64,000 nucleotides of DNA from a virus (Duplodnaviria > Heunggongvirae > Uroviricota > Caudoviricetes): positions 46,446 through 110,445 of the IMG/VR virus record IMGVR_UViG_3300028833_000055, one strand, 5' to 3'. Positions 597 through 61,293 of this stretch are shown one piece after another (position 1 is the stretch's first letter; each line of letters opens with the position of its first letter). The position numbers were made by a program, and so were the translations under genes. A model generated the notes under the pieces. It searched no databases and was not told the DNA's origin. It was given only the letters and a program-made list of their open reading frames with translations.

Positions 597-1289
597 ATGG
601 GAATATTATTGAATTTAACAAAGGAATATTTCGGTGAAATTGAAAGAACAGAGGATGAACTTCCGATGTTGGAAAGAACACCGGATGGTGTTCAAATACA
701 TAAGTTCAGGGATGCAAACGGAAAAATACACAAGAACGGGTATTATATTCCAACTGGAAGAAAAGATGTTTTTTACCATTTAGTATCGGAACTTATACGC
801 TTGAGAGGTGTGGGGGCAAACCTCAATGACATAGATGTTTCAAATATCAGAGATTTAAACAGTGTATTCGGATATGAAGACTTCCGTGGTGATGTGTCGG
901 GTTGGGATACATCAAATGTCATAAGTATGTATCGTCTATTCAAGAGATGCAATAAATTCAACTGTGACTTAAACAACTGGGATGTTTCAAATGTGGAAAA
1001 TTTTGAGGAGATGTTCGATGGTTGTGAAACGTTCAATGGAAACATAAGTAACTGGAAACTAAGTACCGAAAAGGATATACAAGCCGAATATATGTTTAGG
1101 AACTGTTATAAGTTTAATTGTGATATCAGCAAATGGAATGTTTCAAAAATAACCAATCCATATGGGATGTTCTGGGGTTGTCATGCCTTCAATAGAGATT
1201 TGAGCAATTGGGAAATGACCGATGGTAATGCGTTTATAAATTCCAAGGTGGATATGAAGAACCTGCCAAAAAAAATTAAAGTAAAATAA
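597..1289 (+). CDS. DUF285/BspA-like repeat protein with MGILLNLTKEYF leader
   Basis: FNCDLNNWDVSNVENFEEMF-type repeats; paralog of the next gene. Confidence 0.85.
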   Translation: MGILLNLTKEYFGEIERTEDELPMLERTPDGVQIHKFRDANGKIHKNGYYIPTGRKDVFYHLVSELIRLRGVGANLNDIDVSNIRDLNSVFGYEDFRGDVSGWDTSNVISMYRLFKRCNKFNCDLNNWDVSNVENFEEMFDGCETFNGNISNWKLSTEKDIQAEYMFRNCYKFNCDISKWNVSKITNPYGMFWGCHAFNRDLSNWEMTDGNAFINSKVDMKNLPKKIKVK

Positions 1290-1299
1290 TAAATATCTT

Positions 1300-2025
1300 A
1301 TGGGAATATTATTGAATCTGACAAAGGAATATTTCGGTGAAACGGAGAGGGAAGAGGACAAACTCCCTATGTTGGATGAACTGCCAGGTGGAGTGGAAAT
1401 ACACGATTTCACCGATATGAACGGGAAAAGACACAAGGAAGGATATTATATTCCCAGTGGGAAAAAAGTACATCTGGCCCGTCTGATTGGTTCTCTAATA
1501 GATTTGAGAGGTTTTGACTGCAACTTGAACGATATTGATGTATCAAATATCAAAGATATGTCCGGATTATTTTCTCCATATGAAGACTTTCAAGGCGATG
1601 TGTCCGGTTGGAATACATCGAGTTGTACAAATATGAAAAGTTTGTTTAGTGGTTGTGTTCACTTTAACTGCAACTTGAACAAATGGAATGTATCAAAAGT
1701 AAAAAATTTCGAAAAAATGTTTTATCATTGCTACAATTTTAACGGAGATATAAGTGATTGGAAACTAAACACCAAAAAAGTACCCAAAGGTTCACCTTCA
1801 TATAAACAATCAACCATAGTAACCGATAATATGTTTGAAGACTGTCATAGATTTAATTGTGATATCAGTAAATGGGATGTTTCAAATATCATATCGGCAT
1901 ATCATATGATTGCTTGGTGTATTGATTTTCACCAAGATTTAAGTGGTTGGAATTTAGCTTATAAAAATGAAGAGATAGTCTACGCTTGTGTCAAAATGAC
2001 GGATGACTTGATGCCCAAACATTAG
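1300..2025 (+). CDS. DUF285/BspA-like repeat protein with MGILLNLTKEYF leader
   Basis: Same repeat type; alignable by eye to 597..1289 along its length. Confidence 0.85.
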   Translation: MGILLNLTKEYFGETEREEDKLPMLDELPGGVEIHDFTDMNGKRHKEGYYIPSGKKVHLARLIGSLIDLRGFDCNLNDIDVSNIKDMSGLFSPYEDFQGDVSGWNTSSCTNMKSLFSGCVHFNCNLNKWNVSKVKNFEKMFYHCYNFNGDISDWKLNTKKVPKGSPSYKQSTIVTDNMFEDCHRFNCDISKWDVSNIISAYHMIAWCIDFHQDLSGWNLAYKNEEIVYACVKMTDDLMPKH

Positions 2026-21432: not shown

Positions 21433-21449
21433 TATTTATGACATAAATA
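21433..21449. promoter_or_regulatory. back-to-back late-type promoters (TATTTATG-A-CATAAATA)
   Basis: Perfect 8-bp inverted repeat between divergent genes. Confidence 0.65.
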
Positions 21450-21468
21450 AGATATAGTAATACACTTT

Positions 21469-22179
21469 ATGGGAATATTAAAGAATTTAACGGACGAGTA
21501 TTTCAAGAACACCGCCAGGGTCGAAGACGGAAGATACATAGACTTCTACGGTATTAGGATACTAGTACCGGCGGATTATGATACCTATGATTTTTTGAAA
21601 AAGGTCGAGAGCATATATACCGAGTCATTCAAGCACGGTATGGTGAGTTTGCCAGATGATGACACCGACCAGACAAAATTTAAAATCAAACTCAAATCAA
21701 AAAACAAGTATATGCTCATACCGGTTTTCGAAAAATTCAAGGAAATTTCCCAAGAAAATGAAGATGTCGACCAGAAACTGTATGATACATATGTTCTGGT
21801 TATGAGACATTTCCTCAAAGATGTGGAATTGATGAAAAATACGAACTGGCCGTGCATAGTGCTTCAAAACATAGACTTCATATACGACGAACTGTCAGAC
21901 AACGGAGAGATAGACAACGGTTATGAATTAGAAGATATTATGCAAAAAACAATAAATGAATTTTTCAATGAGTTCAAGAAGAAAGCGGACATAATAAAGG
22001 ATGAATTTCATATCACAATAACACACAGTTATAAATGTATCACCTTTATGGACCTGACCAACGAGTCAAGTTATTTTGAGTTCAAGACACTTATATATGC
22101 AAATGAGATGGTTGAGTGGTGGAAAAACAAGACCGATGAAATAAGAAAGAAAGGTGTTCTTAACTATTTTGGATTATAA
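21469..22179 (+). CDS. hypothetical protein with MGILKNLTDEYF leader
   Basis: Shared leader; distant paralog of 22918..23670. Confidence 0.8.
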   Translation: MGILKNLTDEYFKNTARVEDGRYIDFYGIRILVPADYDTYDFLKKVESIYTESFKHGMVSLPDDDTDQTKFKIKLKSKNKYMLIPVFEKFKEISQENEDVDQKLYDTYVLVMRHFLKDVELMKNTNWPCIVLQNIDFIYDELSDNGEIDNGYELEDIMQKTINEFFNEFKKKADIIKDEFHITITHSYKCITFMDLTNESSYFEFKTLIYANEMVEWWKNKTDEIRKKGVLNYFGL

Positions 22180-22193
22180 TTAAATGATGAATT

Positions 22194-22907
22194 ATGGGAG
22201 TTTTAAAGAATTTGACAGACGAGTATTTCGGAAACGGGATAAGAACCGAAGACAATATGATATCTAATCTCATCAGAAGATGTGTGGATGAAAACAGAAG
22301 AGACATATTCGTAAGACTCAACAAAGAATGGGGTGAAGATGGCAAGGAGATTCTGGTTTATCACAAAGACGCCACAATAAGTGAAGCGAAACTTATGAGT
22401 GTCGATGAGGCATTGGGGTTCTTCAAGCACGATAACAATATATTTAGGACTGACTACCGGTGTCTTCACATAGAGAACTTTATGGCCACACCGGACACAT
22501 ACAAGGTAAGTACCTTCCATATGCTTCCGGAAAACATACAAGAATCTTTGACCGAAATGTTCGAGTTATACTGCAAATATCCCGAAACTATCAGTTTCTT
22601 TACACATATTATCTATAACCACAAGGAAGGCATAATAAACAATATTTTTCCTGGAGAACTCTGTAATTATAAAGGAGATGAATATTTTGAAGGTTTTGAT
22701 GAATATGAGAATGGTGATGATGTTGTTGAATTTATAACGACTGACGGAGATTTCTTCTGTTATGATGACGAGAAGTATTCGTCCGAATGGGGAAATATCT
22801 TTAACAAGATATGCGAGGCGTTTGAGAACGAAGGATTCAAAGAGGCTTTGGATATGTGTGACATAACTTCAAGCGAAAAAAGATTTTTCTTCGGAAAGAT
22901 AAAATAA
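22194..22907 (+). CDS. hypothetical protein with MGVLKNLTDEYF leader
   Basis: Shared leader; body unrelated to neighbours. Confidence 0.8.
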   Translation: MGVLKNLTDEYFGNGIRTEDNMISNLIRRCVDENRRDIFVRLNKEWGEDGKEILVYHKDATISEAKLMSVDEALGFFKHDNNIFRTDYRCLHIENFMATPDTYKVSTFHMLPENIQESLTEMFELYCKYPETISFFTHIIYNHKEGIINNIFPGELCNYKGDEYFEGFDEYENGDDVVEFITTDGDFFCYDDEKYSSEWGNIFNKICEAFENEGFKEALDMCDITSSEKRFFFGKIK

Positions 22908-22917
22908 AATACTGAAA

Positions 22918-23670
22918 ATGGGAATATTAAAGAACTTGACAGACGAGTATTTCGGAGAAATCGCAAGAACCGAAGATGGAAAATACATCACTGTACATGG
23001 ATGTAAGGTATTGGTTCCAGTGGACTATGATGAGGAAAAGTTTCTTTCATATGTGGATGAACTGCTTGACACTGAATATTATGACAGTTATCCGGCGGCA
23101 TTGATTGTACCATCGAGTTATATAAGAGAGTATGATGATAAAACAATAGTGAATTGTGACGGAGCATATCTTGTACTGTATAATTTTTCCGACATCGACA
23201 GTGAATATATACCGGAAGGTACGGATGAAAAACTATATGACTCGTTTATAAAATTCATGAAACATATCGCCGATGGTGTTAGTCTTATGATATACAGTTC
23301 CACCGGTCACATCTGTCTTGTGGATGAAAGTACTATGTATAATGACTTTGATATGCTGTTTTATGAAGCAGGTGTCGATGGGGATGAAAGTTATTGGTGT
23401 TTCAATGACCTTGTGGATATGTTCATTGAAGAATTTGGCGGCAAGGTTGACATAGACAAGGACGACCTTGTGTTTATGTCATATAACAACTATGCATCAA
23501 ATATTCTTTTACCGGTAGAAAGTTCGGATGATATCATCAATTTGAAAAGACTTATGTACGCAAAGGAAATGACGGAATGGTGGGAAAGAGAATTTAAAGC
23601 CATAAAGGACGAAGGTGTATCGGATTATTTCGGTATCGACCCGCCTGAAGACGAACCAGAAGACGAATAA
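22918..23670 (+). CDS. hypothetical protein with MGILKNLTDEYF leader
   Basis: Shared leader; C-terminal YAKEMTEWW..GVSDYFG resembles 21469..22179. Confidence 0.8.
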   Translation: MGILKNLTDEYFGEIARTEDGKYITVHGCKVLVPVDYDEEKFLSYVDELLDTEYYDSYPAALIVPSSYIREYDDKTIVNCDGAYLVLYNFSDIDSEYIPEGTDEKLYDSFIKFMKHIADGVSLMIYSSTGHICLVDESTMYNDFDMLFYEAGVDGDESYWCFNDLVDMFIEEFGGKVDIDKDDLVFMSYNNYASNILLPVESSDDIINLKRLMYAKEMTEWWEREFKAIKDEGVSDYFGIDPPEDEPEDE

Positions 23671-23705
23671 TCACATAAATAAATGTAGATAAAATATTTT
23701 GTTAT

Positions 23706-25523
23706 ATGGCAGCTGATAATATTAGAGAGATATTCAGAACCGACACTGTTGGTGAATTTATGGATAAGTGCAACTGGAACTTCGGTATCATTTCAAGACT
23801 CGGCGGACCGAGAGGTCTTCAGGGTGAACAAGGTGAGACCGGAGCGAGGGGAAGACGAGGAGCTATGATGCACGTCATAGACGGAGAGTCTATGTCCGGT
23901 ATGGACTTTGACACGGATTCGGCCAATGAAATCCTTGAAAATCTCGACGAGGATTTGAGAAACGAGATTGAAGACGGTGATGTCGCCGTTTTCAGTAACG
24001 GATGGGTATGTGGTGTCAATGTCGAAAACGACTCCATAACCGTAAACGAACCCTTGTTCTCGATAGTGGGTCCACAAGGTGAAAGGGGAGCCACGGGTGC
24101 AAGTGGTGATACCTTGTTTACAGACACCGAAGATATGGCATCATTGAATGGCCGAAGACAACTGTTGATTGATAACACCATTTATTTACCATCAAATAAT
24201 TCCAATAGTGGTGGTATTGTATTTTCCGAACTTGAAGAAGAAGGCGGTGTTTATAATGGAATGACTAATACAAAGGCACATATCAACTTTAAAAACGATG
24301 GGTTGAGTATAAATTCAAATAATAACATCAGAATAGGTACAAGTAGTTCAATCAATGAAATCAACTTTAATATTGGGAATGGTAATGATATAATGAAAGT
24401 TAACAATAACGGAGTTAATCTTTATAAGAGTTTGAATTTTAGTGCATCTACGGGTAAAATAACTAAAAGTGGTAATATAATAACTTTATACCAAGATAAG
24501 ACACAATTTAACAAACCTATATGGTCTGATTCCATAATATCACAATATAATCAATTCAGACTTAATAATTCTGTGGTGGGTACTATTGGTGCATATAGTA
24601 ATAACGGTTTACTTATTTATAATCAAGAAAATGCATTTGTTATAGGTCCGCAGGCTAATGCACCTTATAGTTCAATCGTTTTTTCAGAACGAAATGATAA
24701 TACGATGAATGGTTTAATTTTTACTAGTAAAGATTTTTCGGAATTTATTTATGATTGGAGTCTCAATAATAGTAATTCTACAATAATATTTCAAGATAAA
24801 AATCTAAATAACCTTAACATAATAAAACATAATAGTAATAATCCCACCAATATCATAACCATACAAAATAATTTAACAAATTTCTCAACACCTGTCAAGG
24901 GTATAGTCAACGGTGAATCTGTTTTTCTCGGAGTACCGACATACACTATGATGACATATCCGGATACACTTCCTGCACCGCAGGGATGGGCAAGATTTGA
25001 AGATAACTTGATTCTGTTTACCGATGGTACAAGTTATAATACAACAAGTTTTGATATTAATGCATATAATGACAGTGACTCGAATTTTTACATATATTAT
25101 AACGATGGTGAAACTACTGGTTATCAAAGAATAATAGCGGTAAATACATTACCTTCCGACTTTGATGTCCAACCATCAAATAGTCAAAAAATAAGTTATA
25201 ATTCCACACCAAAAAATACTGCCAGTTCAAAGGAATCTATGAGTGAAGTTCTTAATATGTCAAGTAAATTAAATATCACCGAAAATAGTTTCGAAGCCAT
25301 TCTTGCTTTTGCAAACACCAACGATAAAGGAACACCTGGTAGTGGAAATACTCCCTCGACAATTCCCGTATATGAAAATTTACTCAGAAAGATATTCAGA
25401 GACAGACATACTAATACTTACGAATTTGGTATGGGAAAAATAGTTTCCGACAATCAATTTGCATTCTATTTCCCAATGCCCGTTGCCCCGACCGGATTTA
25501 CATATATCTTCAAGACGGCATAA
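23706..25523 (+). CDS. putative tail fibre/receptor-binding protein with short collagen-like segments
   Basis: GPRGLQGEQGETGARGRRG and GPQGERGATGASG; Asn-rich distal part; CATAAATA at 23674-23681. Confidence 0.65.
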   Translation: MAADNIREIFRTDTVGEFMDKCNWNFGIISRLGGPRGLQGEQGETGARGRRGAMMHVIDGESMSGMDFDTDSANEILENLDEDLRNEIEDGDVAVFSNGWVCGVNVENDSITVNEPLFSIVGPQGERGATGASGDTLFTDTEDMASLNGRRQLLIDNTIYLPSNNSNSGGIVFSELEEEGGVYNGMTNTKAHINFKNDGLSINSNNNIRIGTSSSINEINFNIGNGNDIMKVNNNGVNLYKSLNFSASTGKITKSGNIITLYQDKTQFNKPIWSDSIISQYNQFRLNNSVVGTIGAYSNNGLLIYNQENAFVIGPQANAPYSSIVFSERNDNTMNGLIFTSKDFSEFIYDWSLNNSNSTIIFQDKNLNNLNIIKHNSNNPTNIITIQNNLTNFSTPVKGIVNGESVFLGVPTYTMMTYPDTLPAPQGWARFEDNLILFTDGTSYNTTSFDINAYNDSDSNFYIYYNDGETTGYQRIIAVNTLPSDFDVQPSNSQKISYNSTPKNTASSKESMSEVLNMSSKLNITENSFEAILAFANTNDKGTPGSGNTPSTIPVYENLLRKIFRDRHTNTYEFGMGKIVSDNQFAFYFPMPVAPTGFTYIFKTA

Positions 25524-25553: not shown

Positions 25554-28500
25554 CTAAATCTTCTTTATCGTGAAACTGAAACCGAAGTCCTCCTTACATC
25601 CTTTCTTCAGATTATATGTTATACATCTGTCGAACTGGTTCTCCGTCATCTTCTTTATCGAGAAAGTATTGACTTTCTTCATATCCTTCGTGACCTTCAC
25701 ACTGTTATCTATAAGTATGAATTTCTTGTAGTTGTTCTCTATACGACTGTCGTGGATACCGACCTTCTTCTCCTTCACCCACATTTCTATCTTGTCGAGG
25801 TAATAGAGTTTCATTATGTTCTTTTCTATGTATGAGGTTATGTCATCCGATATAGTGGTCTTGTCACCGTATGAATATTCCGGATTAACATATTCCTCGA
25901 AGACATACTTCAGACCACTCTCCCTTGCAAAATACCTCACTATTCTGTTATAGAGGAAAAGATAGAAACTTACAGATGTACCGTTGACCTCCTTACACAT
26001 AATGTCGGACAACGATATTTTCGAACTCGTTATGAAGTCATCGTTCCAGTCTATGCATCTGTTGAATGTTTCTATGGTTATCTCCTCCGGTACATTCAGG
26101 TATTTGCTTCCGAACATAGACATCTTGTTGAGGGAACCGGATGTTCCAGCACACCTTTCCGTAGTCTTCTTGTCAACCTGTGTGGTGAAGTACTTGTCGT
26201 CCCAGTTGCTTTCAAAAATATTATAGTCCCTGTAGTCGAGTGCAAACTCACCTATCGCCGGATAGAGCGGGTTCATAAGTTTTATTATCTTGTCCGGATA
26301 ATATTCGTTCACCTTATGGAACCAGAGGTTCTTAATGAGTGCAAACTGTCCGTAGAAATCCTTGTATCCCAAATCGAAGGATGTGTTTGAATATTTGTAT
26401 GTCGGAAAATCGTTATCTTCGAAGACCTCTTTTTCCACGAGTTTATAATATTTTCTGATACAAAAATATGAACTACTATATTGATTCACTTCCGATGGTA
26501 GAAATGGTCCATATGCGGTATTCCCATAGTCAAAATCATCCTCATTTGTCAATTCATAACTATAACTTGTATATGTATCTGATTGAAGTTGATAATATTG
26601 CTCATTGAGATATATGTAGTCCTCATCTTCTGCGGTTACATTTTGAATATCCGCTCTATATGATGGAGAATATCCTTGCGGTATTTCTCCAAGTCCAATG
26701 GATTCATATGAATATTGAAGTCCATAAACACCCGTGACATAATAATATACAACCCCATCGGTGTAGTAATCGGAATCCGAATCACTTTCCGAACTCGGTC
26801 TTTCATATACCCTGACCAATTCCTGTCCATCAAGTTCATCTTCGTTTATTAGTATAAAACCATAATTTGTCTCATAGACAAGTTTATATAACTTATCTAT
26901 ATAAAGTAAATATTCATTTTCATATGAACTATGTGTAAAATAACCATTATGGTCGTTGTCTTCGGTGAGTGGTGTATATATCACAGATGCATTGTTGGGA
27001 AAATCATCGTTTATTTTTTGATATCTATATACCGCTCGATAAAATTGATTAACAATATATACAAACTCATCTGAATCTGAATTGGCGTCATAATAATCAT
27101 CCGAATCACTCGAATCAATTAATGAATCCACTCTTACCGCTTCTGATGTGAACCCACACTGTTCATAATAATATGATATATGTCTTTTGTAAAATTTAGA
27201 ACTGTTAATACAAATATATTCGGGAGGAGGAGGGGTAGTAGTTATACTAGTCCAACTATAATATGAAAGTAAATTATTATCATTCACTCCCAATTCAGCA
27301 TATATACCACTATTCTCACTACTTGAAACTATTGTATATTCTTCACCTTCAATTTCTCCCTTTTCTATTTCAACATACCAATATTTAAGTTTACGTTCAT
27401 AATAACTAGCATATGCTACATATTCATCAGAATTATCTTTTGGATTAGGTTTTTTATCTAAAAATGTAGGTTCTTCACTCGAATCAATATCACTTTCATC
27501 TATCTCTTCATAATCAACCACCACACGCTTATAATATACTCTTTCACAGTATATATAGTCCGGGTCTTCGGGTGTCGGGTCATTTGGAACATTCTCCATA
27601 TATACATAATTGTCATTTTCTTCATTCGTTGGTACATAGTGATATGCCATATCACCACTTTCTTTACACAAATAAAGTTCTCTGGTATATACATATTCAG
27701 CGGGGTCTTCCGAAGATGATGTGGGGTCATCGGGCACAGTTACAACCGGTTCCATTACTTCTGCAATTTCAGTAGTTTCTTCCACCGTTTCATATGAAGA
27801 TATTTTCTTATAAAAATCACTGATAATCGTCACATGGTCGGGACTACCCTCTGCCGCTACAGGCAATGTATAGTACTTATCACTGGTGTGACCTTCCGTA
27901 TCAATTTCATCATACCAATAACTGGTCGTTGATGATTCCACAAGTTTATACAGTTCATCGGTATATATAAACGGACTGTCGTCAATAGAAGGTGATTCCG
28001 GTACAGAATCCCTTTTATCACAAAGCGATTCATTTACATCACTTTTGTCAACCGGAACATATTTATACTCCTTCCTGCTCATATATTCGGAATCGCTGTC
28101 AGAATCTTCTCCCGAGTCATCTTTCATACGATAGTCGTTATACATAAGTACCGGATTGAAAATAGGATTGTAGTACCCCGAGTATCTGTTTATTGTCTTC
28201 AACACTATGTCGTTGGTATTGTTCTTCAAAGTTATTTTCGAACTTGCCGGTACATTCTCGTTACTCTCCTGTACGATATACGGATTACCCATAAAAATAT
28301 CATAGGTGTTGAATGAAATCGGGTCTTCTATCTCAATCTTGTATTTTCCATCGGTTGTGGAATAATAGTGTGTCATAGTCTCGTCTTCGAGTCTCTCCTT
28401 TATGGCACAAGTTGACAACGATTCATATATGCTGTAAAAATCCTTGAATACAAGTGAATCACCGGTTTCATCGGGTTTATCCTTGAATGTCAAGTCCACA

Positions 28501-31500
28501 ACCAGTTTGGACAAATCCTCCGTCCTCATTGACTGGTTGTTCTCTGAATCGAATCCAATGGTATTATTTTCGACTTTTATACCGGTATATTCACGACCAT
28601 ATTCATAATCACTATTACGTATGACCATACTTGATATGCAATACTCATCGTCAAGATTGTCTATTATTCTTATAATGGACTGGTTTACAATAACAAGACC
28701 ATTAATTTTAAACCAATTATATTCATCTCTTTCAATTTCTTCAAACAAGGATTCAATAGGAATATTCCTTAAAGTGATAAAATGATTATCACTTTCACTT
28801 TCACTGTCACTTTCACCTTCATCGAAATCGGGCAAAGTCAATAGTCCGTAACATCCCCCGTATATATACGCCTTACCGAAGTTATCTATGTTATATTTTG
28901 AACTGACATTGGAAGTATCCTTATCGAACATATTGACCAGTATGAAACCGACTATGAACTTGAATGTATCGTTCTTTACGAAGTAAATGTCATCACTGTT
29001 GAATATCGAATTGAGTGCCACGGGTATGTATATGAAGGAGAACTTATAGTCGTTGTAATCCGTTCCTTCCATTTCCATATCATCGTCATTGACCTTCTTT
29101 ATGTTGAATTTGACACCTCTGAACAAAGTGGTGGCGAAATGGTTCTCGTCACCGAACTTCATCCTTGAATACTTCTTGTTGAACCTCTTGTCGTTGTCGG
29201 TCTTGTATGAGAAAAGTCTGTCGAAATTATCAACTTCGGTATCTTCAAAAAGTTCTATACATTTTTTCACACATTCATTATATACACCCCTTGAATCGTG
29301 TGTATAATTAATCATATCCAATATACCAATAGTGTCATTCACATACTGGTAGTCCATATTTTCCTCCGTACTTTCATCCTCCGATGTCTTTTTCTTCACA
29401 AGATAATAGGGCATAGAATGGGTGTGTTCATTGATTGAATACTGATTGGAGAAAGTGTTTGAGGACAGATTGCTCGTTCCGAAAATCTTACTCATATTCA
29501 AACGGTACGGATTCTCACAACTGTCCTTCTCGTCGTCATAATAACCCCATTTGGTTATATAAGGAACACATTTGCTTACCGTTGAGAGTTCGGGTATGAA
29601 ATTCTCCATAAAGTATTCGTATTCCGTGTCTATCGGCCTTCCACCATAGTCTTTCATATAACCTTGTGCAAGTGTGGTGATTTTACCTCTGTTGTATTCA
29701 CTACCACCATCATCGTTTTCCAACGAGTGTTCTTCAAGTTTCGCACATTCATTATAAAACGCTTGGTAGATACCGTATGAAGAGAATACGGTGTCGAAGT
29801 CGAAATCCATAACCGGGAAGAAACTCAACACACCGAACTTCGGATAGAACCTGTCTATGATTTCAACCATATTGGTGTTAGACACATTCACATTCACACC
29901 CTTTTTATCCGTTGTCAATTCAAAGTAGTCAGACTCGACCTCACCGTTTTCGTTCACATACGGAACACAGGAGAGTATCCTTGAATTTATCTTGTTCTCA
30001 CCAATGGTCTTCAAATATCTGGTATCAAGGAATATGTCCTTGTCCTCCTTCTTGACCTTGAACACACAGTCTTTCTTCTGGAAATCCTCATCCACATTGA
30101 TGTCACTCTCATATACAGTGACTCTTCCGTTGTTTACCAACGACTCGTCCAACTCGATAACAAGGTCGGTGTGGTTGTATCCGACATAACTTATACACCT
30201 TATCACGACCATATTCTTGTCATACAAGGCCTGATACAACGCAAAACCGTCTTCATATGATGTGTTTATACATTCACAGAGGGCTCTCACCATATCCTCG
30301 ACCGAACCTTCGGCGGAAAACTTGGTACCCTCAAACTGTCCGACTGGCAGCGGATTCTCATCATCGTCAGTAACCGCCGTGAACTCCTTGTATATTCCGT
30401 CTCCGAACCACAGTCTTATCTGCTCGCCCTGCTTGAAATTCTTGTTGACTTCAAACGAGAACTTGCCGGACCTGTTAAAATTGTCAACCCTTTCACAGTA
30501 TGAAGACACTCCGGTTTTTTCGAAACCACATACCGTTGACAAGTCAAAAATCTTGTCCACTATCTCTATGTCCAAAGTGTCGGTTTCACTGTCGCTTTCA
30601 CCGACATAGTTCTTTATACTTGAAATCTGGTGCAAATCGTTGTTCTTGTCCTTTATGTAGAAGAAAGTCTTTTCCTTTTCATTACCTTCGATATCAAGTC
30701 CACACAGTTCCTCGTCATAGTCCACGGTAAGTTCCACGGGATTTCCGACCAGCAGAGGACTGACTATATTCTCGGGTTTGTCCACCAGGTCGTGACGGAC
30801 TTCAAATTCATAGAGGTCTATGTCATTGCAGTACATACCGAAATATCTTGAAAACTCATAGTTTTCAGTATCATCGTCGTCAAACAGGAACTCCATATTG
30901 AAGATATACGGATATATAAGACCATTTCTCTTGTAACCGCTTGTAATCCACTCGTCGGAGTGCATTATCGTATTGTCGTTTTCAAGGAGTTCCCTCTTGA
31001 AATTCTCCTTCTTGGTGGTGAGTACGCCGTATATCTTGTCTATACCGTAGTACACTATCTCATTCGTGGTGAAATTCACATACACCGACTTGTCGTATTC
31101 GAAATTTGACTGCTCGACATATTTCTTGATATAGCTTCCTATCGGAGTACCCTCCCTCAAGTCGAAGGACTTTATAATCTTGGCGTTCTTGAAAACATCT
31201 TCATAGAGCTTGAACTCAAAGTCCTTGAACTCTTCCGAATTCTCCTTACGGGTAAGATTGTAGTTACTCGGTCCGTCAACCTTGAATATGACGAAATAGT
31301 TGGGAAGTTTCTTCCTTATATACAACGGAGCTATGAAACCGAGCTCCTGCGGGTACTGCTTCGAGTTTATACTCTCCACCCCGCACCAGTACATAGTCTC
31401 GAACTGCTTGTCGTAACTATCACAGATTGACATATCAGATTCCTTCTCAAACACATCGTATGCAGAATCACCGCTGTCCGTCAAGAAATTACGGATATCC

Positions 31501-31706
31501 ATATTGAACGGAGATGTTCTCTTCACCCTGAAATTCTTATATCTCTGTGTGGTCAGAAGTGGATTTGCATCGTATGATTCAAGATACAAATTCTTGCCGT
31601 CATACATCAGTTTTGTATTCGTGGTTAAAATAGGATTTGTTCTGACAAGCTGGATACTGACATCATCGTCAAGTCTCGTATAGTTTCCGTTGAATATCTT
31701 ACTCAT
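25554..31706 (-). CDS. very large putative virion protein (2050 aa) with an internal acidic Tyr-rich repeat block
   Basis: Long uninterrupted ORF; CATAAATA at 31730-31737 (minus); function not recognised. Confidence 0.6.
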   Translation of the reverse strand: MSKIFNGNYTRLDDDVSIQLVRTNPILTTNTKLMYDGKNLYLESYDANPLLTTQRYKNFRVKRTSPFNMDIRNFLTDSGDSAYDVFEKESDMSICDSYDKQFETMYWCGVESINSKQYPQELGFIAPLYIRKKLPNYFVIFKVDGPSNYNLTRKENSEEFKDFEFKLYEDVFKNAKIIKSFDLREGTPIGSYIKKYVEQSNFEYDKSVYVNFTTNEIVYYGIDKIYGVLTTKKENFKRELLENDNTIMHSDEWITSGYKRNGLIYPYIFNMEFLFDDDDTENYEFSRYFGMYCNDIDLYEFEVRHDLVDKPENIVSPLLVGNPVELTVDYDEELCGLDIEGNEKEKTFFYIKDKNNDLHQISSIKNYVGESDSETDTLDIEIVDKIFDLSTVCGFEKTGVSSYCERVDNFNRSGKFSFEVNKNFKQGEQIRLWFGDGIYKEFTAVTDDDENPLPVGQFEGTKFSAEGSVEDMVRALCECINTSYEDGFALYQALYDKNMVVIRCISYVGYNHTDLVIELDESLVNNGRVTVYESDINVDEDFQKKDCVFKVKKEDKDIFLDTRYLKTIGENKINSRILSCVPYVNENGEVESDYFELTTDKKGVNVNVSNTNMVEIIDRFYPKFGVLSFFPVMDFDFDTVFSSYGIYQAFYNECAKLEEHSLENDDGGSEYNRGKITTLAQGYMKDYGGRPIDTEYEYFMENFIPELSTVSKCVPYITKWGYYDDEKDSCENPYRLNMSKIFGTSNLSSNTFSNQYSINEHTHSMPYYLVKKKTSEDESTEENMDYQYVNDTIGILDMINYTHDSRGVYNECVKKCIELFEDTEVDNFDRLFSYKTDNDKRFNKKYSRMKFGDENHFATTLFRGVKFNIKKVNDDDMEMEGTDYNDYKFSFIYIPVALNSIFNSDDIYFVKNDTFKFIVGFILVNMFDKDTSNVSSKYNIDNFGKAYIYGGCYGLLTLPDFDEGESDSESESDNHFITLRNIPIESLFEEIERDEYNWFKINGLVIVNQSIIRIIDNLDDEYCISSMVIRNSDYEYGREYTGIKVENNTIGFDSENNQSMRTEDLSKLVVDLTFKDKPDETGDSLVFKDFYSIYESLSTCAIKERLEDETMTHYYSTTDGKYKIEIEDPISFNTYDIFMGNPYIVQESNENVPASSKITLKNNTNDIVLKTINRYSGYYNPIFNPVLMYNDYRMKDDSGEDSDSDSEYMSRKEYKYVPVDKSDVNESLCDKRDSVPESPSIDDSPFIYTDELYKLVESSTTSYWYDEIDTEGHTSDKYYTLPVAAEGSPDHVTIISDFYKKISSYETVEETTEIAEVMEPVVTVPDDPTSSSEDPAEYVYTRELYLCKESGDMAYHYVPTNEENDNYVYMENVPNDPTPEDPDYIYCERVYYKRVVVDYEEIDESDIDSSEEPTFLDKKPNPKDNSDEYVAYASYYERKLKYWYVEIEKGEIEGEEYTIVSSSENSGIYAELGVNDNNLLSYYSWTSITTTPPPPEYICINSSKFYKRHISYYYEQCGFTSEAVRVDSLIDSSDSDDYYDANSDSDEFVYIVNQFYRAVYRYQKINDDFPNNASVIYTPLTEDNDHNGYFTHSSYENEYLLYIDKLYKLVYETNYGFILINEDELDGQELVRVYERPSSESDSDSDYYTDGVVYYYVTGVYGLQYSYESIGLGEIPQGYSPSYRADIQNVTAEDEDYIYLNEQYYQLQSDTYTSYSYELTNEDDFDYGNTAYGPFLPSEVNQYSSSYFCIRKYYKLVEKEVFEDNDFPTYKYSNTSFDLGYKDFYGQFALIKNLWFHKVNEYYPDKIIKLMNPLYPAIGEFALDYRDYNIFESNWDDKYFTTQVDKKTTERCAGTSGSLNKMSMFGSKYLNVPEEITIETFNRCIDWNDDFITSSKISLSDIMCKEVNGTSVSFYLFLYNRIVRYFARESGLKYVFEEYVNPEYSYGDKTTISDDITSYIEKNIMKLYYLDKIEMWVKEKKVGIHDSRIENNYKKFILIDNSVKVTKDMKKVNTFSIKKMTENQFDRCITYNLKKGCKEDFGFSFTIKKI

Positions 31707-37685: not shown

Positions 37686-37719
37686 AAAAAAGGAGAGTTT
37701 CAAACTCTCCTTTCTTTTT
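37686..37719. terminator. bidirectional intrinsic terminator
   Basis: aaaggagagttt-c-aaactctccttt. Confidence 0.75.
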
Positions 37720-38068
37720 ATTCTATGAAATATTCTGAAAATTCATCCCAGTCCATCTTGATGTTTTTGTACTCCTTCATATCTTCATCGTAATATATGA
37801 TAGTAAAACCCAAATCTTCATCCGTCTCACCGTTTATATTACTATATGAAAACACTCCGACAAATTGGGCTCTCTTTTCGGACAGTTTATCCTTTATGAG
37901 TTTTTTCACATCATACTGATGACCATCCTCCTTTTGCAGAGTGAAAACACCTTCGTCATCTGTATAACCTTCCTTTTCAATCGTAAGTGTTTTGAGATAT
38001 TTGGACAAATTTTCCTTATAGTTGCTGTAATTCTCCCTTACAAATTCATTGAATTTCTTAACGCACAT
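37718..38068 (-). CDS. hypothetical protein with KKFNEFVRE leader
   Basis: CATAAATA at 38091-38098 (minus). Confidence 0.7.
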   Translation of the reverse strand: MCVKKFNEFVRENYSNYKENLSKYLKTLTIEKEGYTDDEGVFTLQKEDGHQYDVKKLIKDKLSEKRAQFVGVFSYSNINGETDEDLGFTIIYYDEDMKEYKNIKMDWDEFSEYFIE

Positions 38069-44055: not shown

Positions 44056-44083
44056 AAAAGGTGAGGATTTCCTCACCTTTTTT
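44056..44083. terminator. bidirectional intrinsic terminator
   Basis: aaaaggtgagg-attt-cctcacctttt. Confidence 0.8.
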
Positions 44084-45104
44084 ATTCCGTTATCATCTCC
44101 TTGACTTTCTTATAGCTGAATTTTACTTTTGCACCATTTTCTGCATAAATCTTGAACATATTTGTTAGAATCTCTTCAAACTTCTCTTTTCCGAACAGTT
44201 TTTCGAAACCTTCAATATTTTTTCTCAACTTCTTTATATTTTCAGAATCTAACACTTGCGGGTCGTCGTCTCCGAACAATAATGCCGGTTGATATCGCTG
44301 ACCTATATGACCGAGTGATATGACACAGTTTCCATTCTCGAAATGAAGATTCGTTTCCAGCATATAGAGATTGTCTTCATCGTTCCAGAAGGTTGACCTC
44401 ATAATCGGACGGCTCACATCGTTGAATCTGTCGTTACCGTTGAATGTATCACCGACTTTGAGTACAAATTCCGTTAATATTACGAGATTTTTCTCCTCCT
44501 TTCCATATTTATCCATTTCCTTATAAATGGACTTCATATCCACTCCACTTCTTATAATTGCATCTATGGTATTTTTTCTGGATTTCTCGGAATCTTTATC
44601 TGTTTTCCTAATAACTCTTTCCACTTTCAATACATATTCGGCAAACGAGGCGAAATCAACTTTATCCTTGTTCTTCGTCTTCTTATAGTGGTCGAGAATT
44701 TCTTCGATGGCGGTTATTGCTTTTTTTTCACTTTCACTCTCTTCCTCATATACCTCACGGTCGTAACCGTATTTTTTTACTTTATTACCGTTATATTTCA
44801 GCATCTCCTTGTAAGTCTCTATCGCCTTATCCATATCCAGCTCGCCGAGTAATTCCTTGTCTGTAAGTATGTCGTCACGCTGTGCGTAGCTTGTACCACG
44901 TTTTTGTTTACTTTTTCTTGACAGATTGTCTATCGTTGACTCGCTTGCGTTGGCATAGAGGATGTACAGCAGTGCAAATTCCAGATGACTGTACTGACCC
45001 AACCCTTTTGTAATTTTTTTAAGCGACTGGTTTACGTCTTCAAGTTTCCTGGATGAAGTCTCCAGAATAAATTGTTCAAAAAGTTTAATCTTTTCCATAT
45101 TCAT
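44082..45104 (-). CDS. hypothetical protein with KLFEQFILE leader (candidate internal head protein)
   Basis: Leader plus CATAAATA at 45120-45127 (minus). Confidence 0.7.
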   Translation of the reverse strand: MNMEKIKLFEQFILETSSRKLEDVNQSLKKITKGLGQYSHLEFALLYILYANASESTIDNLSRKSKQKRGTSYAQRDDILTDKELLGELDMDKAIETYKEMLKYNGNKVKKYGYDREVYEEESESEKKAITAIEEILDHYKKTKNKDKVDFASFAEYVLKVERVIRKTDKDSEKSRKNTIDAIIRSGVDMKSIYKEMDKYGKEEKNLVILTEFVLKVGDTFNGNDRFNDVSRPIMRSTFWNDEDNLYMLETNLHFENGNCVISLGHIGQRYQPALLFGDDDPQVLDSENIKKLRKNIEGFEKLFGKEKFEEILTNMFKIYAENGAKVKFSYKKVKEMITE

Positions 45105-55502: not shown

Positions 55503-56291
55503 TTAAATAAAATCTCCGATACTCACTCCGTTGTATGTGTAATAGTCTGTTACTGCGTCATATTTGATTTCAAACTCACTTTTACCGTTATATAAAATGT
55601 CATCATCAAATTCATATTCCTTGTCATCGAAATAGAACGACATTTCTTCCAAAAATCCACTTATAGTAACTTCTTCATATCCACCTCTTCTTGGGTATGA
55701 ATCGGAAGATAATTCTAATTTCACATAACAAGTTATCTTTTCACCGGATACTTCCATATTGATTTCGAATTCCACATCATTCTGGTCGGAATATTCGGCA
55801 AGATTTTCTTCTATGTAATGTTCTACATTTCTTGTTATTTCACTTATGTTTTCCTTTGTGGCGAATCCTTTTAAAAATTTCCTTTTTTCCTGTTCGTCAT
55901 AAACGGTGTTTTTTGGTTTCGGGTGCAATATACCTTGGTTATACTTCCTTCTCTCCTTCTTCAATATTTCAAGTCTTTGCTTTAATGTTTCCTTATCCAT
56001 AGACTCGACCGAATCCTTCAGTGTATCGAAATTTTTCAATACGAGAAGTTTTCCGTTTTCAAGTTCAATATAGAATGTGGGTTCATCATCACGAAATCCG
56101 GAGTTCTTATATTTTTCCTTATATTCATCCCTGTCTCTCACCAAACCCAGTATATCACTGTCTTGTGTGTCATATAATATCCTCTTATCCCAATTATATT
56201 TCGGATAACCGTTCTGTTTTATTATGGTACGGAGTTTATTACTCTGGAAAGCCTCGTTTATGAACTCTTCATATTTTTTTATGTATCCCAT
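55503..56291 (-). CDS. hypothetical protein with KKYEEFINE leader (candidate internal head protein)
   Basis: Leader plus CATAAATA at 56314-56321 (minus). Confidence 0.72.
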   Translation of the reverse strand: MGYIKKYEEFINEAFQSNKLRTIIKQNGYPKYNWDKRILYDTQDSDILGLVRDRDEYKEKYKNSGFRDDEPTFYIELENGKLLVLKNFDTLKDSVESMDKETLKQRLEILKKERRKYNQGILHPKPKNTVYDEQEKRKFLKGFATKENISEITRNVEHYIEENLAEYSDQNDVEFEINMEVSGEKITCYVKLELSSDSYPRRGGYEEVTISGFLEEMSFYFDDKEYEFDDDILYNGKSEFEIKYDAVTDYYTYNGVSIGDFI

Positions 56292-58206: not shown

Positions 58207-59940
58207 TTAGTAGAGATTTACACCCTTACCACATCTTACTTCAAAAGCATAGTAGTAAAGTTGTGGGTGATGTCCTGCACGAACAATAGCATAACGTGAC
58301 TTCAATGAAGTTACAGGAGCACCTTCCATACCTTCTGCCGGATAAGAGAGCTTATCAGCCATCAAGTAAGGCATGAAAACGATACCTGGTTCATTGTCCT
58401 TACCCTTACGACCTACTACGATGTGACCATCTGTATAAGGCATATTCGGGTCAACATAGATGCTTACACCTGAAATTGCACCGATTGGGTAGAGAGAACC
58501 AGCGGTCTGGTTGATGGTGTTAGAAAGTGGATAAGCTGTGAAACCAGCACAATCCTGGATAGCGGCTGCGATACCTGCTGCACAAACAGCGAAAGTACCA
58601 GCACCTCTACGACCTCTTTGAGCGATGAGTGTAGAAGCAGCGAGAATCTTCGAGTACAGTCTTCTCTGGATTGTACCGAGAGTTTCAGCACCACCTGCTA
58701 CGAATACGGTTTCGTATCCTTCTGGTTGAGTTTCAGTCGGGTCAACGAAGAAGAATGTGTTAAGGTTGATACCTTCAAATGCAAGAGCTTCCTCGTGGTT
58801 CTTCCAACCAAGTTCGAAGATATTGTTCAACAACTCACGGTTGATGTGCTGTGTCAACTCGTTTACGAGTTCTGCTTCAACCTGTGCGAGAGCGTCAATA
58901 CCGTAAGCCTTGAGGTCCTGAATCTGTTCACGAGTGATAGCACCCTTAACCTGGATGGTCTTGGCTTCTACCTTCTCGGTGAATACGTTCAAAGACATCA
59001 TATTGCTTGGAGTAGATTCACCAGTTGCTCTGTCATAAGACTGTGCAGACATTGGTTTACCGTTCTTGAATCCAGCACCTGTGAAACCAGGGATGAAATC
59101 TTCGAGAGCCTTTACAGTGTCGATGTCAACAACATAGTAAGACTTTGATTCACTTCCATCTTCAAGTGTGAAGATAGGTTCACTACCCATCATAAGAGCT
59201 TCAGCGAGAGTCTGTGAAGCACCTTCACCACCATTCCAAAGTTGATTATTTGTTCTCATCTTTTCCTTTACCTGGAAGATAGGACGACCGTCGATACGAC
59301 CGAGTGCTACGAAAGTGAGTTCATAATTATCATCAATTGGGAATACGGCGTTTGGTTGGAACAACTTCTGCATATCCTTGAAATTTGCAGAATGACTGAT
59401 TTTGTCATCAAAATCAATATCCTTGTCGGAATCAGTGTCACCTTCTGCAAGTGTCAACTTGACCATAAGAGGTGCAGTTGTTGATTCATTACCTTCTGGC
59501 CAAGTACCTTGGAAACGTGGGTTGATGTTAGTCTTACCACCTTCGTAAACATAGTCCATATACTGAAGGATTCCGAGAGGACCCTGCATTGGAACTACTG
59601 GAACCAAGTCCAAAGCGATAGTCTGAGCTGCTACCTGTACTGCGAGAGGAAGGAGTGAAAATGGATTATCACCGCTACCACGCTGTCCATCGTAACCGTT
59701 GTTAGGGTTAGCACCTGGGAAGAACATATCACCCATACCACCAACGTTCATACCTGGGTTAAGGTGAGCATATCCCATTACTGACTCATTAAGTTGTTTC
59801 TTTTCGTACATATCGTGATAAGCACAATACTTACTCATCCAAGTCAACTTGCTTCTATCAGTAATGCCAGTTGACTCGGTAATAAAACCTGACCAAGCCT
59901 TCATTGTTTCGGCCTCGTTCAAAATAACATTTTGTAACAT
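58207..59940 (-). CDS. gp23: major capsid protein (T4 gp23-like)
   Basis: DLVPVVPMQGPLG, VEAKT..ITREQIQDLKAYG.DA, INRE, RRGAGTF, VYVDP, FMPY, LKSRYA; strong codon bias; two CATAAATA upstream (60023-60030, 60090-60097). Confidence 0.93.
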   Translation of the reverse strand: MLQNVILNEAETMKAWSGFITESTGITDRSKLTWMSKYCAYHDMYEKKQLNESVMGYAHLNPGMNVGGMGDMFFPGANPNNGYDGQRGSGDNPFSLLPLAVQVAAQTIALDLVPVVPMQGPLGILQYMDYVYEGGKTNINPRFQGTWPEGNESTTAPLMVKLTLAEGDTDSDKDIDFDDKISHSANFKDMQKLFQPNAVFPIDDNYELTFVALGRIDGRPIFQVKEKMRTNNQLWNGGEGASQTLAEALMMGSEPIFTLEDGSESKSYYVVDIDTVKALEDFIPGFTGAGFKNGKPMSAQSYDRATGESTPSNMMSLNVFTEKVEAKTIQVKGAITREQIQDLKAYGIDALAQVEAELVNELTQHINRELLNNIFELGWKNHEEALAFEGINLNTFFFVDPTETQPEGYETVFVAGGAETLGTIQRRLYSKILAASTLIAQRGRRGAGTFAVCAAGIAAAIQDCAGFTAYPLSNTINQTAGSLYPIGAISGVSIYVDPNMPYTDGHIVVGRKGKDNEPGIVFMPYLMADKLSYPAEGMEGAPVTSLKSRYAIVRAGHHPQLYYYAFEVRCGKGVNLY

Positions 59941-60114: not shown

Positions 60115-61293
60115 TTAATCAATCAACGAAAGATTAAAATTATAAAGGTTTTCGTTCAACATTACATTACCGTAACGGTCACTGTACAATGACTCGTTAT
60201 ATGCGTTAGTTACCATATCAATAACCTTGTCAAGAGGATAGTTCTTCTTGTTCAACGCCTTGACACCTTTCTTGATAACTGCACTTGCGGTTGCATCCTT
60301 TACTGAAATCAACTTGTCACCGGCCTTGTCTGCGAGGTCTGAAATCTTCTCACCAATCTTGTTCATAAGAACCTTGATGTCATTCATCCAGTCTGCGAGC
60401 TTATCGGTAACTTCCTCATATGCTTTACGGACACCTCTACTAAAACTGTTCCAAGCTTCTTTTACTCCGTCTGCAATGTCACCAGCGGTTTCCTTCACAT
60501 AGTTTTTCACTTCATCGGCCTTTGTTGACAACCATTCCTTTGCTATCATTACGGCTGCCGTAACCTTTTCCTTTGCATCGTTGAAAATCTTCTTAATGAA
60601 ATCACCGAATGCTTCGGCCGCTCCAGAAACTTTCTTGCCGACCAATAGCAATATTGCCCAACATACCTTTGTGAAGATATAAATCTTATCCTTTATTGAA
60701 TTATATGCGTTTTCCAAAGCGTCACCTGCCTTTTGAAGTTTATCCTTTATTTCCTCATAGGCCTTTTCTACAAATTCAACAATCTTTGAATAAACTTTCT
60801 TCAAAGCATCTTTTGCAAGGTCAAACCCAGAAACACCGAGTTTAATAAGGAAACCTATTGATGAGACTATGATATTGGGAATGGCAGTAACCACCTTTTT
60901 TGTAAATTCATAACCACCTTTCATAGCCTTGACAATAGCACTACCAACACCTTCAAAAAACTTTTTTGTAGCGTCTGCGTCAGATTTGATTTCATCAAGA
61001 ACACTTACCAAACCTTCCTTCATAGCTTCACCACCTTTTTTTGTACCATTGATAACAGCATCTATTGCAGAACCAACATTGTATCCAAATTTGGCCATTG
61101 CATATGCCATAGTTTGTGCAAATACATCACCTACTTTTTCGGCTGAATTTTCACGGATAAAATCGGCAGTAATCTTAACTTTAGGTTCTTCAGGTTCACT
61201 TTCCCTATTGAACAAACCTTCGTTTACGGAATTTTCATATCCGTAGTTACTGTAACGGTTTTCATTTATAAATTCTTCAAAATTCTTAATCAT
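60115..61293 (-). CDS. amphipathic helical protein with MIKNFEEFINE leader (candidate internal/ejection protein)
   Basis: Leader; Ala/Lys-rich helical repeats; located in the head gene cluster. Confidence 0.7.
   Translation of the reverse strand: MIKNFEEFINENRYSNYGYENSVNEGLFNRESEPEEPKVKITADFIRENSAEKVGDVFAQTMAYAMAKFGYNVGSAIDAVINGTKKGGEAMKEGLVSVLDEIKSDADATKKFFEGVGSAIVKAMKGGYEFTKKVVTAIPNIIVSSIGFLIKLGVSGFDLAKDALKKVYSKIVEFVEKAYEEIKDKLQKAGDALENAYNSIKDKIYIFTKVCWAILLLVGKKVSGAAEAFGDFIKKIFNDAKEKVTAAVMIAKEWLSTKADEVKNYVKETAGDIADGVKEAWNSFSRGVRKAYEEVTDKLADWMNDIKVLMNKIGEKISDLADKAGDKLISVKDATASAVIKKGVKALNKKNYPLDKVIDMVTNAYNESLYSDRYGNVMLNENLYNFNLSLID

Follow-up and report, generated by a model that had tools for sequence, protein, structure and literature searches.

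Five genes in a 64,000-nucleotide (nt) stretch of a tailed-phage genome (IMG/VR record IMGVR_UViG_3300028833_000055, genome positions 46446-110445; the whole stretch is referred to here as the window) encode proteins that begin with the same 20-residue leader, MG[IV]L.NLT.EYF....R.ED, and continue into bodies of unrelated types. The genome is a single contig of 363,334 bp with 40% G+C. The leader is modular, is selected at the peptide level, has a free N-terminus, stands in a late-promoter context, takes part in cassette exchange and is restricted to a few protein families. We consider it highly probable that the proteins dock through it to a single shared partner; that this docking is to the virion seems to us about as likely as not.

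The leader and the genes that carry it

The leader proteins of the genome were sorted by all-against-all BLAST into five classes (A to E), three of which (A, B and C) are represented in the window by the following genes.

3-593, + strand: class-A (DUF285) leader gene, C-terminal part only; its start and leader lie 343 nt upstream of the window (genome 46103-47038)
597-1289, + strand: class-A leader gene, 230 amino acids (aa); leader in codons 1-20 (597-656); body of DUF285 repeats (PF03382, E 2e-38)
1300-2025, + strand: class-A leader gene, 241 aa; leader 1300-1359; body of DUF285 repeats (PF03382, E 1e-37)
21469-22179, + strand: class-B leader gene, 236 aa; leader 21469-21528; entire cassette missing from the close relative L015
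22194-22907, + strand: class-C leader gene, 237 aa; leader 22194-22253; without family match
22918-23670, + strand: class-B leader gene, 250 aa; leader 22918-22977; acidic C-terminal tail

The five complete open reading frames (ORFs) were found as described in the original prediction, which had been made from the letters of the window. It had spoken of five genes with three body types; all five carry the leader, and the count for the whole genome is larger, 16 genes in five classes. In an alignment of the five proteins, 12 of the 20 leader positions are invariant (M1, G2, L4, N6, L7, T8, E10, Y11, F12, R17, E19 and D20), and only four invariant columns are found beyond residue 20. A hidden Markov model (HMM) of 22 residues was run on the six-frame translation of the whole genome, a check suggested together with the prediction. 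It gave 15 matches at E values from 1e-15 to 3.5e-13 and one at 1.3e-6, and every one of these 16 matches is an ORF start with the leader at residue 1. Chance is excluded because the strong matches all fall at ORF starts and the next-best one reaches only E 0.37. The leader is thus real, strictly N-terminal and far above chance.

Constraint on the peptide

The codons of the invariant residues vary, two to four being used for each: GGA or GGT for G2, TTA, CTT, CTG or CTA for L4, TTG, TTA, CTG or CTT for L7, ACA or ACG for T8, GAA or GAG for both E10 and E19, and AGA or AGG for R17. Over the first 20 codons of the 16 paralogues, 741 synonymous differences stand against 877 identical codons. The use of several synonymous codons for invariant residues means that the constraint acts on the amino acids, and the earlier statement that the peptide rather than the DNA is conserved is borne out by this codon table.

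The leader is hydrophilic, with a mean Kyte-Doolittle value of −0.4 to −0.95, a net charge of 0 to −3, no cysteine and a longest hydrophobic run of two to three residues. These properties rule out a Sec or lipoprotein signal, as had been predicted. We claim no amphipathic helix either, the hydrophobic moment of residues 2-13 (0.24-0.45) being equalled by 11-49% of shuffled versions. The pattern MG...N matches eukaryote-style N-myristoylation, which was dropped because the genome is that of a tailed phage of bacteria.

Unrelated bodies behind one leader

Ten of the 16 leader proteins are DUF285-repeat proteins (class A; PF03382 at 131 and 129 bits for the two window proteins, Pfam gathering cut-off 25). 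Class B comprises three proteins, among them those encoded at 21469 and 22918, class C is represented by the gene at 22194, and classes D and E consist of one gene each, both outside the window. BLAST alignments between classes end after 20-26 residues, and profile-profile comparison (hhalign) aligned only 22 columns of B with C, 21 of B with A and 23 of C with A. The AlphaFold2 model of a class-B protein (22918-23670), built on an alignment of nine sequences (pLDDT 83, pTM 0.81), has residues 1-13 free with pLDDT below 50 and a compact alpha/beta domain from about residue 21. The predicted fold is plainly different from a DUF285 repeat. Full-length homology of all five proteins, the outcome named in advance as fatal to the prediction, is contradicted by this difference in fold and by the shortness of the profile alignments. 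The leader is a separable module on unrelated bodies, structurally free of the body. A conserved protease site was sought directly after the leader and none was found; the folded domain begins at about residue 21.

The class-B model found no PDB structure in Foldseek at E<=0.001, the top VIA-align score (Z 5.5) was within noise, and Atlas gave no usable match. The class-C model was too poor for use (pLDDT 49, alignment of only three sequences).

Distribution and cassette exchange

Exact-pattern scans of viral, metagenome and genome DNA collections, followed by an HMM pass, yielded 63 more leader proteins. A 32-column leader profile run against 1.84 billion representative proteins matched 156 clusters at E<=0.001, nearly always at residue 1; the few offset matches seem to reflect how the starts were called. 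The bodies of these clusters fall into eight classes and two singletons; in phages, the leader is found on seven body classes. Class G, which occurs in relatives and not in this window, is Lcl_C/Fib_succ_major-like: PF07603 was matched in five of seven scanned proteins (best E 0.0076) and PF09603 in three (best E 6.4e-5), and the motifs W-R-L-P-T and V-R-L-V-K-D are visible in the alignment. Its body looks like a lectin-type module. The tblastn searches with class B and with the 32-aa leader against 50,697 phage records gave nothing, even at E 10. The scan of phage databases suggested with the original prediction found no match to the leader in deposited phage genomes, and the leader string was not found in the literature, which agrees with its description as apparently new.

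Bodies of the DUF285 type have also multiplied in other jumbo phages, all of them without the leader: Vibrio phage pir03 has up to 40 or more such places, Sphingomonas phage PAU has 12, and the Aeromonas phages D6 and D9 have 9-10; Lak phages contain such bodies too.

Related phages differ by whole leader cassettes. In the close relative L015, whose upstream flank is 93% identical, the slot that is occupied here by the classes B-C-B contains C-A-B. The flank alignment stops 36 nt into the first leader and the next one starts 2 nt ahead of the second, so that the difference amounts to exactly one cassette with leaders as its junctions. Between the same flanks, L009/L020, which is more distantly related, reads B-A-B-A-B, and in L018 a class-C-type gene lies beside a class-A gene in the slot of window positions 597-2025, where two class-A genes are found here. 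The predicted interchangeability of the genes is thus supported by gain, loss and swapping of whole cassettes at leader boundaries.

Late-promoter context

The source phage is a jumbo myophage from the rumen with a T4-like core, including a tail sheath, a gp44-like clamp loader and a topoisomerase II large subunit. Its head genes, in the order portal-like, protease, small gene, scaffold-like and capsid, include a gp21-type prohead protease (PF03420, E 1.6e-11) and a gp23-type capsid protein (PF07068, E 8e-30). Among deposited genomes, it is closest to metagenomic huge phages, to Lak phages of Prevotella and to Flavobacteriia phages, with 27-40% identity.

The motif CATAAATA, which had been noticed in front of the leader cluster, is present in 81 copies in the genome, as compared with 19-38 copies for the variants with A, G or T as the first letter. 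Of these copies, 59 lie 4-56 nt before a gene start on the same strand, including those of the sheath, protease and portal-like genes. The T4 late promoter consensus is TATAAATA, and CATAAATA, with C in the first position, is late-promoter-like and its analogue. Each leader gene sits in a co-directional run headed by CATAAATA. The copies around the cluster and further examples are as follows.

21442-21449, + strand: CATAAATA, late-promoter-like, 20 nt before the ATG (21469) of the first gene of the cluster
23674-23681, + strand: next CATAAATA, heading the collagen-like, tail-fibre-like gene that follows the cluster
23706-25523, + strand: this gene, 605 aa with collagen-like G-x-y runs; weak match to phrog_5073 tail fiber (E 5e-6)
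49137 and 64077 (the latter just past the window end): further CATAAATA copies

A different N-terminal tag in the same phage

Another N-terminal tag, K.FEEF[IV].E, heads at least seven late genes, the scaffold-like gene among them (observed 7, expected 0.4). It looks like the capsid-targeting sequence (CTS) of phage T4, ending in the I/V-x-E site that would be expected for a gp21-type protease. The genes carrying it at the N-terminus are listed below.

60115-61293, − strand
55503-56291, − strand
44082-45104, − strand
37718-38068, − strand
genome positions 139327, 152770 and 240354: three genes outside the window

Looser cases include a 988-aa DUF285-AAA fusion and a 678-aa ATPase. The N-terminal region of the capsid protein contains three L/I-x-E sites, which suggests T4-like protease specificity in this phage. 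The leader has neither an I/V-x-E nor an L/I-x-E site: the P3 residues of its invariant E10 and E19 are T8 and R17. It is therefore distinct from the CTS-like tag and deserves the name of a second tag given to it in the original prediction. Since the CTS-like tag occurs on the scaffold-like gene and at least six others, N-terminal addressing is already in use in the source phage. The isoelectric point was tried as a clue to location and rejected, because both sets of tagged proteins are acidic, as is the entire proteome.

The prohead protease ORF (62024-64042, − strand) encodes 672 aa. The Peptidase_S77 match covers only residues 33-150 or so, and a C-terminal extension of about 500 residues follows, whereas T4 gp21 has about 200 aa in all. 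A 104-aa late protein (genome 122815-123129; L054:316-630), encoded just upstream of a leader gene, repeats the stretch M-N-V-G-G-M-G-D, which also occurs near residue 65 of the gp23-like capsid protein (58207-59940, − strand); by this resemblance it may be a mimic or a fragment of the capsid N-terminal arm.

A chromosomal family with the same leader

Another class of leader proteins, F, is not found in the source phage. Its members, 320-460 aa long, contain an HExxH motif and, after it, an acidic E-E-P motif; they are encoded on bacterial contigs up to 660 kb long. Their neighbours are genes for a TolC-like efflux protein, AAA_14/DUF4143 ATPases, a cytidylate-kinase-like protein, RmuC, an AddAB-like pair, cytoplasmic BspA-type leucine-rich repeat (LRR) proteins and DUF2779. 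The capsid gene gp23 was not found in the five Bacteroidales genomes carrying class F. Class F is chromosomal in Bacteroidales, and the tag is therefore not confined to phages. In these five host-type genomes, the leader profile matches class F only, with one copy each and one weak paralogue. The leader is kept among members of 44-99% identity, is more conserved than the body and varies synonymously, as in the phage; this synonymous variation implies that it has been kept for a long time. A few members begin exactly after the leader, which may be a gene-calling artefact. No match for class F was found in Pfam, PADLOC or PDB sequences, and Atlas gave only sub-threshold zinc-protease leads.

The class-F gene ends co-directional arrays of small genes interleaved with RmuC (L048:6438-7355, − strand; arrays in L013, L032 and L044), which adjoin AddAB-like genes, cytoplasmic BspA LRR proteins and DUF2779. 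In a second paralogue of class F the leader has diverged (MGALTNMTEESF...), and one neighbouring family weakly matches the defence candidate PDC-M08B (E 2.7e-4). In the phage, no counterpart of class F or of the neighbouring island genes was found except a BspA-type LRR gene (genome 308550-309280, − strand), the product of which is 31-48% identical to the cytoplasmic LRR proteins beside class F. The eight or nine spacers of the phage CRISPR array had no match beyond 12-13 nt in the loci compared with them, including the class-F loci.

Comparison with known systems

The T4 CTS is carried by the internal proteins IPI-III and Alt (Mullaney and Black 1996, as reviewed in PMC9026906, PMC3012670, PMC5694885), and the processing residues 8 and 10 of the IPIII CTS are a hydrophobic L/I at P3 and Glu at P1 (PMC9026906). 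The leader resembles it as a short N-terminal peptide that is the sole common part of unrelated, non-essential, fast-changing late proteins. The head machinery is also the same (gp21-type protease, gp23-type capsid protein, scaffold-like gene), with the variable genes in plastic arrays. The internal-protein genes of T-even phages are likewise plastic and have only the CTS in common (PMC3012670), which the leader cassettes mirror. The leader differs from the T4 CTS in its binding-type, mostly acidic bodies, in the presence of a tagged host chromosomal family and in the separate CTS look-alike on other proteins of the same phage. Because it lacks the defining L/I-x-E cleavage site and shows no sequence resemblance, it is not a CTS of the T4 type.

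Similarly, the payload signals of PVC and Afp, which are extracellular contractile injection systems, are disordered N-terminal leaders that direct diverse payloads to a T4-tail-like particle and suffice for their loading (PMC9054023, PMC11495950, 10.1101/2023.11.13.566157). Loading there needs an AAA+ ATPase (Pvc15; PMC11495950), and late AAA+ genes, none of them linked to the leader, are present in the window. However, the PVC/Afp leaders are about 50 aa long and unrelated in sequence, and their particles contain no DNA. The lumen of a phage tail tube should be occupied by the tape measure protein. By analogy, the leader would be most like the T4 CTS and the PVC/Afp signals in its working and a member of neither group.

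In the giant phage SPN3US, the head paralogues gp53 and gp54 have conserved N-terminal 15 residues and diverged in the rest, and the identical N-termini were interpreted by the authors as an assembly or maturation signal (PMC5694885). Their bodies share homology (34% identity), and protease motifs occur in the peptide, whereas the leader bodies are unrelated and the leader has no such motif. Anchors of receptor-binding proteins also combine a conserved N-terminus with variable binding-type bodies, and a tail-fibre-like gene adjoins the leader cluster. Such anchors attach to a hub on the tail or baseplate and mostly take the form of folded domains, on fibres or spikes that are trimeric; the class-B model predicts a compact globular domain and not a fibre. 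The cargo-loading peptides of encapsulins and microcompartments are a further case of a conserved terminal docking element with a swappable module, those of encapsulins being mostly C-terminal; here, as with the anchors, one scaffold accepts many modules. We know of no receptor-binding anchor or encapsulin or microcompartment peptide that resembles the leader sequence.

The leader as a proposed docking tag

We propose that the leader is a portable docking tag, a short linear motif clear of the folded body that would be recognized by one common partner, and that cassette recombination at the leader would graft this tag onto unrelated late-expressed accessory proteins. We infer the existence of the partner, its location in the virion and its site there: it would most likely be a part of the phage late assembly, and the tag would load or attach proteins to the virion at a site other than the head core, which the CTS-like tag may address. 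As the leader has no prohead-protease site, it would probably be retained on the protein. We slightly prefer peripheral display on the particle to a role as internal cargo, because a protease site is missing and the recognizable bodies are ligand-binding modules. The original prediction is supported in part: a modular, exchangeable tag is borne out, whereas the destination that it suggested and the designation of the proteins as effectors are not supported. The bodies that can be identified are binding modules, DUF285 repeats and Lcl_C/Fib_succ_major lectin-like domains. A virion location would be consistent with late expression, with the N-terminal addressing that already exists in this phage, with seven phage classes against one host class, with the binding-type bodies and with the adjoining tail-fibre-like gene. 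It would also fit the detection of DUF285 proteins in purified giant algal virus particles (PMC7507832).

Several observations weigh against this proposal. The late-promoter context is common to many non-structural genes too, and the helical hydrophobic moment, not being above that of shuffled versions, gives no binding mode. No function was recognizable for the bodies of classes B, C, D, E and H. The source phage is uncultured and the leader proteins are known here from genes alone. Moreover, the leader on the chromosomal class F would be more simply explained by a host-encoded partner.

One alternative is that the leader is a second capsid-targeting sequence, which loads proteins into the prohead core for ejection with the DNA as anti-host effectors. 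The T4-type head genes, the late leader genes and the hypervariable cassette arrays, which resemble the T-even internal-protein genes (PMC3012670), would all suit it, and the tag is of fitting length: prohead proteases of the T4 family cut after Glu and T4 propeptides have 10-19 aa (PMC9026906, PMC5694885), while the leader has 19-20 aa and ends at an invariant Glu. We nevertheless regard it as unlikely, since the expected I/V-x-E site is found on another, CTS-like tag of this phage, P3 of the invariant E10 and E19 is T8 and R17 instead of L/I, the capsid protein sites suggest that the protease is T4-like in its specificity, and LRR-like and lectin-like bodies are atypical of ejected effectors. 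The missing L/I-x-E site likewise speaks against T4-style packaging into the head, which the original prediction had named as an example. Class F raises the question of a partner in the host, such as a Bacteroidales chaperone, protease adaptor, export route or regulator that normally serves class F; by adopting the peptide, the phage would have proteins of its own routed or protected, or would compete for this hub. The chromosomal location of the family among bacterial neighbours, the lack of gp23 in those genomes and a long-kept leader that is more conserved than the body and varies synonymously (in members of 44-99% identity) argue for such a partner. A general address would be expected on many families, however, and in the five host-type genomes it is on class F only; seven classes carry it in phages, and it has no secretion-type features. 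This explanation is therefore quite doubtful in our view.

Invariant R17 and E19 and a nearly invariant acidic residue 20 at the boundary between tag and body would also suit a role as pro-peptide or degron, with cleavage or recognition by a protease of phage or host setting the time of activity or turnover, in which case the host zincin could be an infection sensor. Activation of host immune proteins through cutting by a phage prohead protease is documented (PMC12991175), and some class-F members begin exactly after the leader. These starts may be artefacts, however, no match to the L/I-x-E preference inferred for the source phage is found, and there is no clear need for such control of 16 binding-type proteins, which makes this explanation improbable. 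Finally, the conserved 60 nt could serve only recombination or translation initiation, the peptide having no role. Cassette junctions do lie at or inside the leader, and 5' coding sequence can matter where Shine-Dalgarno sites are rare. Bacteroidales rarely use Shine-Dalgarno sites. This explanation is largely refuted by the 741 synonymous differences in the codon table and by similar variation in the bacterial copies, and we give it hardly any credence.

A more far-reaching version of the docking-tag proposal is that T4-like jumbo phages have a second cargo or display system, independent of the CTS, for which the leader is the address label, and that class F acts as a 'Trojan horse': a zinc protease of the host that would have itself brought to the assembling particle or be activated there. 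This is a speculative idea with a small chance of being right. If it were true, host immunity would exploit a viral addressing code that is hard to change because 16 phage genes depend on it.

The T4 CTS and the PVC leader serve as handles for loading foreign proteins into phage heads and nanosyringes, and if the docking reading is true, the leader, as a second tag unrelated to these, would be a new loading handle, from a T4-like jumbo phage that belongs to gut and rumen Bacteroidales. It would also explain the large, rapidly shuffled accessory sets, as any body that gains the 20 residues joins. About 150 orphan protein clusters gain a name and a role that can be tested. Its presence on a protease-like host family raises the question of mutual exploitation of an addressing code by hosts and phages, and this unexplained host copy could make the leader system considerably more interesting.

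Proteins flanking the cluster

The leader cluster is flanked by two genes, each with its own CATAAATA: the 605-aa tail-fibre-like gene described above and a gene at 25554-31706 (− strand) for a 2050-aa protein (phrog_31887). Both proteins are candidates for the docking hub.

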